64,000 bases of DNA from an uncultured Gammaproteobacteria bacterium (GTDB lineage Bacteria; Patescibacteriota; Microgenomatia; Levybacterales; UBA12049): assembly GCA_964571255.1 (NCBI GenBank), contig CAZNAA010000001.1, forward strand, positions 620,666 through 684,665, read 5' to 3'. The translations under genes were made by a program, and so were the position numbers. Each line of letters begins with the position of its first letter. Within the stretch, counting starts at the first letter, position 1. The notes beneath the pieces are model-generated. The model did no database searches, was not told the DNA's origin, and saw nothing but the letters and a program-made list of their open reading frames with translations. This document shows, in pieces, positions 51,669 to 53,813 of this stretch.

Positions 51669-53813
51669 CTAAACTACAGAGATTACTTCAACTGTTCCAC
51701 CACAAACGCGTGTAATAAGCTCTGTTACTTCAGTAAGAACGGATTGCACTCTCTCTTCTGTAATTCCTTCTCCTCCATCGACATTAATATACAGATTTTT
51801 CGTTTCCTCAGTTACTGCAGTTCGGACACTATCTCTATAGTTTAGATCTAAATTAAATGGTCCTACTTGATCGGTGTATATCATCTCTCCTTTTTTAATA
51901 GAAGTTTCCTCCGCTTCTCCAAGCAAATGAATTTTCTCTTCTCCTTTTGCAAGAGTTAGTTTCGTTGGGAATTCTAATTTTTCCATATCAAATACACCAA
52001 TTGATACTTTGTGTTTCAAAACCACAACGTTTGCTGCATCTACTGCTGTGTTGACGTTGTATACCTCTTTTCCACTGGCAAGACGTCTCAGGAGTGCTTC
52101 AGGACTAGGACGGCGTGAGTGATAGTCTACTCCCATGGTTTTATACATTGCTCTATAAGACTGAACTTCTGGAATTTCATTAATTTGTTCATTCGTTAAT
52201 CCAGCAAGGGATGTGACTACTTCTCCTTTTTCTTTTTCTAACTCTTCTGAAAGTTTTGTAACAGAGACTCCTTTAATAACCGCTACTCCCACCTTTATTG
52301 CTGGGAATTTTTGTAATACTGTTGAATCAATAGTGAGTTGCTCATTTGACACACTTTGTATAGAGGGAGCACTGTCTGATTTTAAGGTTGGGAACATCAC
52401 TACTTCTTTAATTCCCCATTTATTGGTGAAAAACATTGTGAGTCTATCAATTCCTACCCCAATTCCTCCAGTTGGTGGCATGCCATGCTCCATGGCAAGA
52501 AGGAAGTCTTCATCAAGTTGTTGTGCTTCTTCTTTGTCTTTTCGAGCAGCAACAACGTCTTTGGTAAATCTTTCTCTTTGAATAACAGGATCTGTCAACT
52601 CAGACCATCCATCAAAAATTTCTTTGCCTCCAACGTATCCTTCAAATCTCTCTACCCATCCCGGTTTACTCCTGTGAGGTTTTGAGAGAGGACTCACGTC
52701 TTCTGGATAATCAATAATCCAAGTTGGTTCACTCAGTTGTTTTGGAATTAAATGATCAAAGATCATAAAGATAAGTTGTCCTCTCGTTTCTCCTCCTAAA
52801 AGTTCCATATGAGGACAATGAAGTTTGGCAAATTCAAGAAGAGATGCTTCTGTCTCATCATCAACATCTAGTCCCAATTTTTCTTTAAGAATCTCAGTCA
52901 TAGAGATTCTTTTCCACTCTCCTCCAATATCAATAGTTTTATCTTCAATTTGGAGTGTGGTGTTTCCATTGAGTTTTTGGGCGATATGTTTGCAAAGTCC
53001 TTCTGCTACATCCATCACCCTGTTATAGTCTGCATACGCCTCATACCACTCAATCATGGTAAATTCTGGAAAGTGAGTTTGATCAATGCCTTCATTTCGA
53101 AAATCTTTACAGATCTCATATACTCTCTCATATCCACCAACCATCAAACGTTTCAGATATAACTCATCAGCAATTCGCAAATAGACGTCTTTATTTAACG
53201 CATTTAAATGAGTTTTAAAAGGTTTTGCATTAGCTCCACCATAAAGTGGTTGCAAAGTAGGGGTTTCGACTTCCCAGAATCCTAAATTGTCTAAATATTC
53301 ACGTACTGCGCGAACAAGTTTGGTTCGAGTATTAAATCTCTCCCGAACTTCTGGGTTAAGAAGTAAATCTAAATATCTTTGGCGATATCTCGTCTCAACG
53401 TCTTTTACCCCGTACCACTCACTAGGAAGCGGACGAAGGACTTTGGTTAAGAGAGTATAACTGGTTGGAGCAATAGAAACTTCCCCTGCAGTTGTCATAA
53501 CAATTTCTCCCTCAACGCCAACAAAATCTCCCAGATCCAAAAGTTTTAAATGATCATAGAGCTCTCCAAGGAGTTCTTTTTTAAGAAAAAGTTGGATTTT
53601 CCCTGTTTCATCTTTCAAATCAGCAAAAGAGATATTTCCATGAGAGCGAAAAGACGTGAGTCTTCCTGCAGTTTTCACTGTTTTTCCTTCCATCTCACGA
53701 GCTTGCCCAATCGTTTGTTCTTTAGGATAGGACGCAGGGTATGGATTCCAGCCTAAAGCTCTAATTCGCTCTAGTTTTTCAATCATTTGTTGACGCAGGT
53801 TTGAGTCTTCCAT
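51669..53813 (-). CDS. lysS: Lysine--tRNA ligase (class II) fused to ~215-aa C-terminal B3/B4-like tRNA-binding/editing-type domain
   Basis: OB anticodon domain; class II motifs ([34 protein letters not shown]); C-terminal [26 protein letters not shown] matches B3/4 N.VD..N...L..G.P.H.FD signature. Confidence 0.85.
   Translation of the reverse strand: [714 protein letters not shown]

Follow-up and report, generated by a model that had tools for sequence, protein, structure and literature searches.

What is a domain of the kind that removes wrong amino acids from tRNA doing at the end of a lysyl-tRNA synthetase (LysRS)? LysRS is, to our knowledge, unique among the synthetases in occurring as two unrelated structural classes, and it is considered to have no hydrolytic editing site. 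The question is raised by a 64,000-nucleotide (nt) stretch of contig CAZNAA010000001.1 (assembly GCA_964571255.1), here called the window, in which one gene encodes a class II LysRS joined to a C-terminal domain of the B3/B4 type. An initial annotation, made from the letters alone, had proposed this fusion, had likened the added domain to that of PheT, and had suggested that it could supply proofreading or extra tRNA affinity. From the evidence given below, we read the domain as a tethered, autonomous module that edits mischarged tRNA-Lys after transfer, the substrate of which would be a near-cognate residue; we put the probability of this reading at roughly 0.55.

The gene is a single uninterrupted open reading frame (ORF) of 714 amino acids (aa) at 51669-53813, with its ATG at 53813 and its stop codon at 51669-51671 in the ORF list. 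It lies on the minus strand, as do all the window features described below; the initial annotation gave no strand, and the plus-strand translation of 51669-53813 has many stops and no open frame. The ORF list, Pfam, and NCBIfam together give the order as class II LysRS, linker, and B3/B4 domain of the type found in CtdA. The LysRS body has an oligonucleotide/oligosaccharide-binding (OB)-fold anticodon-binding domain (residues 46-122, positions 53448-53678; PF01336, E=2e-15) and a class II (D/K/N) catalytic core (residues 139-477, positions 52383-53399; PF00152, E=1.1e-85). In the translation, the end of the body spans residues 449-475 (positions 52389-52469) and includes motif 3, GGIGVGIDR, at residues 449-457. 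Residues 6-479 scored 590.9 bits against the NCBIfam lysine--tRNA ligase model (PRK00484/NF001756; cutoff, 468) and 526.4 bits against TIGR00499 (cutoff, 427.6). By these profiles, residues 1-475 are a complete class II LysRS.

The body is followed by a poorly conserved linker of 16 aa (residues 476-491, positions 52341-52388), the limits of which come from alignments and from a structural model whose first strand begins at residue 493. The B3/B4 domain itself takes up residues 492-714 (223 aa, positions 51672-52340), and its predicted structure has a pLDDT (predicted local distance difference test) score of 95.7. The Pfam B3_4 match (PF03483) covers residues 553-705 (positions 51699-52157; E=3.2e-22) and scored 79.4 bits in the whole protein and 83.1 bits in the extension alone; the gathering score is 29.3. 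Both halves thus score well above the curated cutoffs of Pfam and NCBIfam, and the proposed fusion, together with the B3/4 homology for which the initial annotation had suggested a profile search, holds up. The two peptides that it quoted are present, at residues 449-475 and 588-613, and the extension it described is real, although at 239 residues (476-714) it is slightly longer than the ~215 given. No second LysRS and no second B3/4 copy was found within the 64-kb window.

The resemblance to PheT did not hold in the same way: the domain is indeed B3/B4, but its kin are the free-standing deacylases of the CtdA type and not PheT. When the extension alone was compared with the sequences in the PDB, the best matches were 9mkl and 9f7e, both CtdA canavanyl-tRNA(Arg) deacylases, and the PheRS beta subunits ranked lower. 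The window domain aligns with CtdA over its full length, through both the B3/B4 fold and the CtdA-type helical insert, at 17-19% sequence identity. With PheT, just 148-168 residues align structurally. The PheT family model TIGR00472 gave the window protein 25.5 bits (cutoff, 402.65), and in a Pfam search none of the PheT-associated B1, B2, and B5 domains was present in it. Among the weaker structural matches were the C-terminal domain of TilS and LRRC47.

Because CtdA is characterized, its residues can serve as a guide to the pocket of the window domain. According to two CtdA papers (PMC12449066, PMC12268091), the CtdA pocket is formed by N105, G116, E118, C166, Q173, I189, and E191, with a basic rim proposed to hold the CCA end; activity is abolished by N105A, N105D, Y104F, E118Q, E191V, G116H, G116W, and Q173G; and C166 modulates specificity. 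We mapped these residues by alignment onto 83 LysRS-fused domains, using the numbering of the window protein. The Asn (N595, CtdA N105) and the Gly (G606, CtdA G116) are kept in 83/83, and so is an acidic residue at position 679 (Asp or Glu, CtdA E191). Four other CtdA residues are replaced, each in 83/83: E118 by Phe (F608), C166 by Asn (N654), Q173 by Asp (D661), and I189 by Asn (N677). The basic rim is strongly conserved (R567, R568, R576, R577, R660, and R664). Part of it lies in an 11-aa basic motif, residues 567-577 (positions 52083-52115), which is the counterpart of the CtdA RTPCSAEALRKR region, a portion of the positive rim suggested in PMC12268091 for CCA-end binding.

In the window's own copy, A594-N595 (positions 52029-52034) correspond to CtdA Y104-N105, the Asn being kept and the Tyr replaced by Ala. 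G606-V607-F608 (positions 51990-51998) correspond to CtdA G116-G117-E118, the Gly being kept and the Glu replaced by the clade-invariant Phe. N654, R660, D661, N677, and D679, each invariant or Asp/Glu among the 83 domains, lie within positions 51777-51854. In CtdA, the canavanine pocket is defined by Cys166 and by a pair of glutamates at its bottom, E118 and E191. Since E118 has become F608 and C166 has become N654, and of these three key residues only E191 is conserved (as D679), the window domain is, by its alignment, a member of a subfamily separate from CtdA and not a CtdA orthologue. In the more distant relatives fused to arginyl-tRNA synthetase (ArgRS), where the domain is at the ArgRS N terminus, the E118 position holds Glu in 4/4 and the C166 position holds Cys in 3/4. 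The pocket is therefore distinct in the LysRS clade and CtdA-like in the ArgRS fusions; it changes together with the amino acid that the partner synthetase charges, as would be expected of an aminoacyl-specific editing site.

To see how widely the fusion occurs, we searched with the extension as the query. A word-indexed search of 5.8 billion proteins returned 59 close relatives (40-58% identity) from Levy-, Roizman-, and other Microgenomates metagenomes, some with the class II core end and others with a domain labeled PF19269. NCBIfam showed that the PF19269-labeled partners are the C-terminal 120 positions of class I (archaeal-type) LysRS. We had considered that they might be GluRS fusions, which the NCBIfam results and the full loci, with their class I LysRSs, ruled out. 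An exhaustive search of 1.84 billion representatives gave as the closest matches proteins 713-794 aa long whose C terminus is formed by the domain, the more distant matches being free-standing proteins of ~230 aa. When one genome per GTDB species was scanned, the domain clade appeared in 154 species-level genomes, mostly Microgenomates, and the best 80 of the 154 loci were fetched. At 80/80 of these, blastx placed the domain in frame right after LysRS, a class I enzyme in 66 cases and a class II enzyme in 14; the fused frame was open throughout at every one of the 80, and the proteins were ~730-835 aa long. Adding contigs L001 and L002 gave 68 class I versus 14 class II. The taxa named in the informative record titles were Levyibacteriota, Gottesman-, Davies-, Woese-, and Roizmanbacteria, Dojkabacteria, CPR3, and "Patescibacteria group." The LysRS-B3/4 fusion thus recurs and characterizes a whole lineage, in which class I LysRS is its usual carrier.

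Many of the records of metagenome-assembled genomes among loci L003-L082, which share a syntenic locus of the Microgenomates type, are titled "uncultured Gammaproteobacteria," "Eisenbacteria," "Methylomirabilota," or "Vitreimonas"; these labels look like placeholders or errors.

That one domain clade is joined to two kinds of LysRS raises the question of how it changed partners. Swaps were counted from the collinearity of the flanks and from the DNA breakpoints. Locus L034 (class II) is collinear on both flanks with L045 and L024 (class I), with 65-90% aa identity at matching coordinates. At the DNA level, L034 is ~70% identical to L045/L024 over 3-1640 and 4148-8662, and the LysRS body is unaligned. 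In alignments of class I-fused with class II-fused relatives, homology starts at the linker position, and for the proteins of L034 versus L045/L024 it begins exactly at the linker/B3/B4 boundary. For locus L062 (class II), an alignment with six class I Gottesmanbacteria loci begins at the B3/B4 start and leaves out the LysRS body; the class II body of L062 is only ~45% identical to the L034-type class II body. Because L034 and L062 are collinear with class I loci except in the LysRS body, at least two exchanges of the catalytic body have taken place between the non-homologous LysRS classes, with the C-terminal domain and its neighbors kept. A neighbor-joining tree of the domains scattered the class II partners among the class I partners; it had no support values and the pairwise identities were too close, and we did not use it for counting swaps. 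None of the columns of the domain tracked the class of the partner LysRS, the best discriminator being a conservative preference for Leu or Ile.

Nor is the domain always fused. At loci L083, L087, and L088, it is a gene of its own directly after a class I LysRS gene, and only at L084 and L085 is it truly free-standing. We had taken the hits of 200-400 aa for a mainly free-standing clade, but most of them are contig-end fragments or split genes directly after LysRS. Because fused, split, and free-standing forms all occur, the domain is, judged by its arrangements, a module independent of covalent context and yet selected to stay with lysine charging. In L001 (positions 4945-7260), a single in-frame TAA separates the catalytic part of a class I LysRS-B3/B4 gene from its anticodon-binding part (...HPELD*GSTSEGEEMPKQ...); the gene may encode a split enzyme or be a pseudogene, or the stop may be a sequencing error.

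If the domain is a tethered editor, it would work as follows. The predicted class II LysRS would carry a complete CtdA-type deacylase domain on a short, flexible C-terminal linker. LysRS, of either class, would charge tRNA-Lys, and the 3' end would then sample the B3/B4 pocket, where an ester with a near-cognate residue would be hydrolyzed and Lys-tRNA-Lys would be spared. The edited residue would most plausibly be a long cationic lysine analogue, because the pocket is lined by Asp661 and Asp679 at the places occupied in CtdA by Gln/Glu173 and Glu191 and because the pocket is derived from that of an arginine-analogue binder. Class I and class II LysRS bind the acceptor stem from opposite sides, and no residue of the domain tracks the partner class; for these reasons what the domain recognizes is probably the aminoacyl-CCA end, independently of the synthetase body. 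The tRNA determinants recognized by the two LysRS classes are the same (PMC7373986). A need for editing is plausible, since LysRS attaches several wrong amino acids and lacks post-transfer editing of its own (PMC4173786).

Some gene neighbors point in the same direction. In L001, a lysine-biosynthesis operon (lysA, aspartokinase, dapB, dapA, and asd) is directly upstream of the fusion, and in L083, lysA and an aminotransferase gene are upstream. In L084 (positions 3722-5310), a gene for a LysO-type lysine exporter (PF03956) comes after a free-standing domain of the LysRS-type clade (P0005). These neighbors are suggestive of a link between the domain and lysine.

Several observations weigh against an editing function. 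The lysine-related neighbors occur at few loci only. B3/B4-like folds can be noncatalytic RNA binders, as the TilS C-terminal domain and LRRC47, both among the weaker structural matches, illustrate. CtdA E118, the residue at which E118Q is inactive, is Phe throughout the LysRS-fused clade, and the CtdA mechanism therefore cannot be transferred residue for residue. The remaining points concern the copy in the window. Among the 83 LysRS-fused domains, it alone has Ala594 (codon GCA, positions 52032-52034) where the other 82 have the Tyr that corresponds to CtdA Y104. It also deviates at 5/71 near-invariant columns (W564Y, L584V, C590A, Y594A, and A607V), whereas the median is 0. Compared with five relatives whose LysRS bodies are 70-79% identical to its own, the B3/B4 domain shows an identity of 53-57%, whereas comparison pairs with similarly close bodies usually have domain identities of 62-78%.

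The window copy nevertheless retains every clade-specific pocket residue except the Tyr. It looks like a diverged domain, possibly weakened or re-tuned, and not a wreck. Because the Tyr is Ala and the domain has diverged unusually fast, the claim of deacylase activity is weaker for the window protein than for the family. The appended proofreading or tRNA-end-binding module of the initial annotation is still the best reading, with the reservation that a copy lacking the Tyr required in CtdA is less certain to be active.

Four alternatives to a tethered editor of near-cognate residues have to be weighed. The domain could be a noncatalytic RNA-binding appendage that grips the acceptor/CCA end of tRNA-Lys, either for affinity or for the hand-over of Lys-tRNA. 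Such a role would suit the strongly conserved basic rim, and it would be in keeping with TilS and LRRC47, whose B3/B4-like folds bind RNA without editing, with the absence from the window copy of the Tyr required in CtdA, and with the Trbp111-type tRNA_bind domain that some relatives also have (P0085). It would leave unexplained, however, why a buried pocket (N595, G606, F608, N654, D661, N677, and D/E679) is invariant in the 83 domains, which exceeds the need of a binder of the RNA backbone, and why the Asn and Gly essential to CtdA hydrolysis are retained. Free-standing copies exist away from any LysRS (L084 and L085), and the nearest characterized relatives are enzymes. We regard a purely binding role as unlikely, although it is the main rival. 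If, on the other hand, the domain is an active deacylase, its targets might be proteinogenic products (Arg-, Thr-, Ala-, Ser-, or Met-tRNA-Lys) and not a nonproteinogenic lysine analogue. The pocket descends from a family suited to side chains that are long and basic, and it has two deep acidic residues (D661 and D679), which fits such products poorly. Furthermore, class I and class II LysRS differ in their misactivation spectra, and yet the pocket is invariant to the class of the partner. In favor of proteinogenic targets, the LysRSs of Escherichia coli and Streptococcus pneumoniae mischarge these amino acids and have no post-transfer editing (PMC4173786), and ProXp-ST factors clear Ser/Thr-tRNA-Lys in trans in other bacteria (PMC7373986). 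On balance we find this distinctly improbable.

The divergence of the window copy allows a third explanation, that this domain is a decaying relic, acquired together with the fusion by descent, no longer selected for catalysis, and kept only as part of an essential gene. Y594A is unique among the 83 domains, there are the five deviations at near-invariant columns, and the domain identity is 10-20 points below the expectation from the body. A relic would hardly be expected to have an intact frame and a pLDDT of 95.7, to keep all the clade-specific pocket residues besides the Tyr, and to remain more than 50% identical to its relatives, and we give decay little credence. Finally, the fusion might be an artifact, produced by a chimera in the assembly, by an overlooked stop codon, or by a frameshift. 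Nothing in the window favors this, and the nearest that the other loci come to it is the in-frame TAA in the class I LysRS of L001 and the truly split genes of some relatives. The window ORF is one open frame, the same fusion is in one open frame at 80 independent loci, and the probability of an artifact is negligible. We thus return to a tethered editor as the preferred reading.

The gene downstream of the fusion (50794-51642) encodes PEGA and SH3_3 domains (Pfam, tblastn) and is a synteny marker, not part of the enzyme; by tblastn, it is also downstream of the fusion at 25 related loci, with both LysRS classes. Beyond it, at 50047-50790, is an AAA_15/AAA_21-type ATPase gene (AbiEii/OLD-like family) that has no homologue at any related locus and may be a lineage-specific insertion. 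On the other side, an M20/M42-type peptidase gene (53834-54919) ends 20 nt upstream of the LysRS start and is probably in the same operon; it is overlapped by a 266-aa ORF without a Pfam match (54903-55703). Homologues of both are upstream of the class II fusion in L036. There is no lysine riboswitch, T-box, or tRNA near the gene, and the 64-kb window has no tRNA gene by ARAGORN and no Rfam family at the gathering score.

A recurrent third partner at the related loci is an HD (HDIG-type) module of ~190 aa, for example at L087 4237-4815 and L003 4667-5326, and also in P0069 and P0085. An HD gene begins no more than ~130 nt after the B3/B4 stop at 25/82 loci and within 1 kb at 29 (22 class I and 7 class II). 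The module is fused to the C terminus in L003, L004, and L058 and is absent from the window. We considered whether it might be a YqeK-type diadenosine tetraphosphate (Ap4A) hydrolase, for which there was no support beyond the generic HDIG match.

Other combinations of synthetase and B3/B4 domain were seen among the representative proteins. P0122 (764 aa) is a class II LysRS with an N-terminal B3/B4 domain and a CtdA-like pocket, P0085 (1072 aa) has the order class II LysRS, tRNA_bind (PF01588), B3_4, and HD, and P0071 (906 aa) is a class II LysRS with B3_4 and DUF2000. P0112, P0114, P0117, P0130, and P0147 (868-1154 aa) are ArgRSs with one or two N-terminal CtdA-type B3/B4 domains. Because CtdA's Glu (E118 position, 4/4) and Cys (C166 position, 3/4) are kept, they look like cis-editing ArgRSs directed against canavanine-like analogues; we found no mention of ArgRS-B3/B4 fusions in the CtdA papers that we read.

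A word search of the same papers found no mention of a fusion, of LysRS, or of lysyl. In the open-access texts that made up our literature search, we found no description of a LysRS-B3/B4 (PF03483) fusion, including in Patescibacteria/candidate phyla radiation (CPR), in agreement with the initial annotation, which was aware of none. A lead from the literature on COG3382, a link to the guanidine riboswitch in Clostridia, was set aside; it bears on canavanine-type CtdA and not on lysine. What is new is a CtdA/B3-B4 deacylase module in cis on a synthetase without known post-transfer editing; the sequences themselves were already public, with machine annotation.

The body swaps between the two classes leave an unusually clear evolutionary trace, and a deacylase-type domain that stays with lysine charging in both classes, even when the catalytic body is exchanged, amounts to a natural experiment. 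Proofreading, it suggests, can be a module that moves between scaffolds and is defined not by them but by the amino acid and the tRNA end. The broader proposition, that in Microgenomates and their neighbors LysRS was turned into an editing synthetase by the recruitment of a CtdA-type deacylase, a module self-sufficient and necessary enough to have been kept through at least two replacements of the body by the non-homologous class, seems to us evenly balanced. If it is true, a lysine look-alike would threaten translation throughout these lineages, which points to a lysine antimetabolite or metabolic by-product relevant to CPR biology. It would also extend the CtdA family from a free-standing, canavanine-specific factor to cis modules on LysRS and ArgRS. 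F608, N654, D661, and N677 are candidate specificity-determining residues for the engineering of editing specificity.

How does the fusion compare with known systems? CtdA (PDB 9f7e and 9mkl; CtdA-1/CtdA-2, COG3382) is a free-standing protein of ~230 aa that acts alongside ArgRS, whereas the window domain is fused to LysRS. Where the CtdA pocket has E118, C166, Q173, and I189, the window domain has F, N, D, and N, and it lacks Y104; given these changes and an identity of 17-19%, canavanyl-tRNA-Arg is not expected to be its substrate. The editing domain of PheT has the B3/B4 core fold in common with the window domain and likewise acts in cis within a synthetase, although editing by the LysRS domain is putative; the Asn that positions the catalytic water is common to all three (PheT N254, CtdA N105, and window N595). 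LysX, the mycobacterial MprF-LysRS fusion, is also a complete class II LysRS joined to a domain that acts on Lys-tRNA-Lys. Its partner, however, is an N-terminal membrane lysyl-phosphatidylglycerol synthase that uses the correctly charged Lys-tRNA, whereas the partner in the window is a soluble, C-terminal domain of the deacylase type. Parallels in organization are AlaRS/AlaX, ProRS INS/YbaK/ProXp, and ThrRS N2/ThrRS-ED. Their folds are unrelated to B3/B4, none is a fused LysRS domain, and ProXp-ST1/2 clear Ser/Thr-tRNA-Lys in trans only. In each of these systems, however, one deacylase fold likewise occurs in fused, split, and free-standing forms, and the logic is that proposed here for LysRS, with the mischarged tRNA hydrolyzed after transfer.

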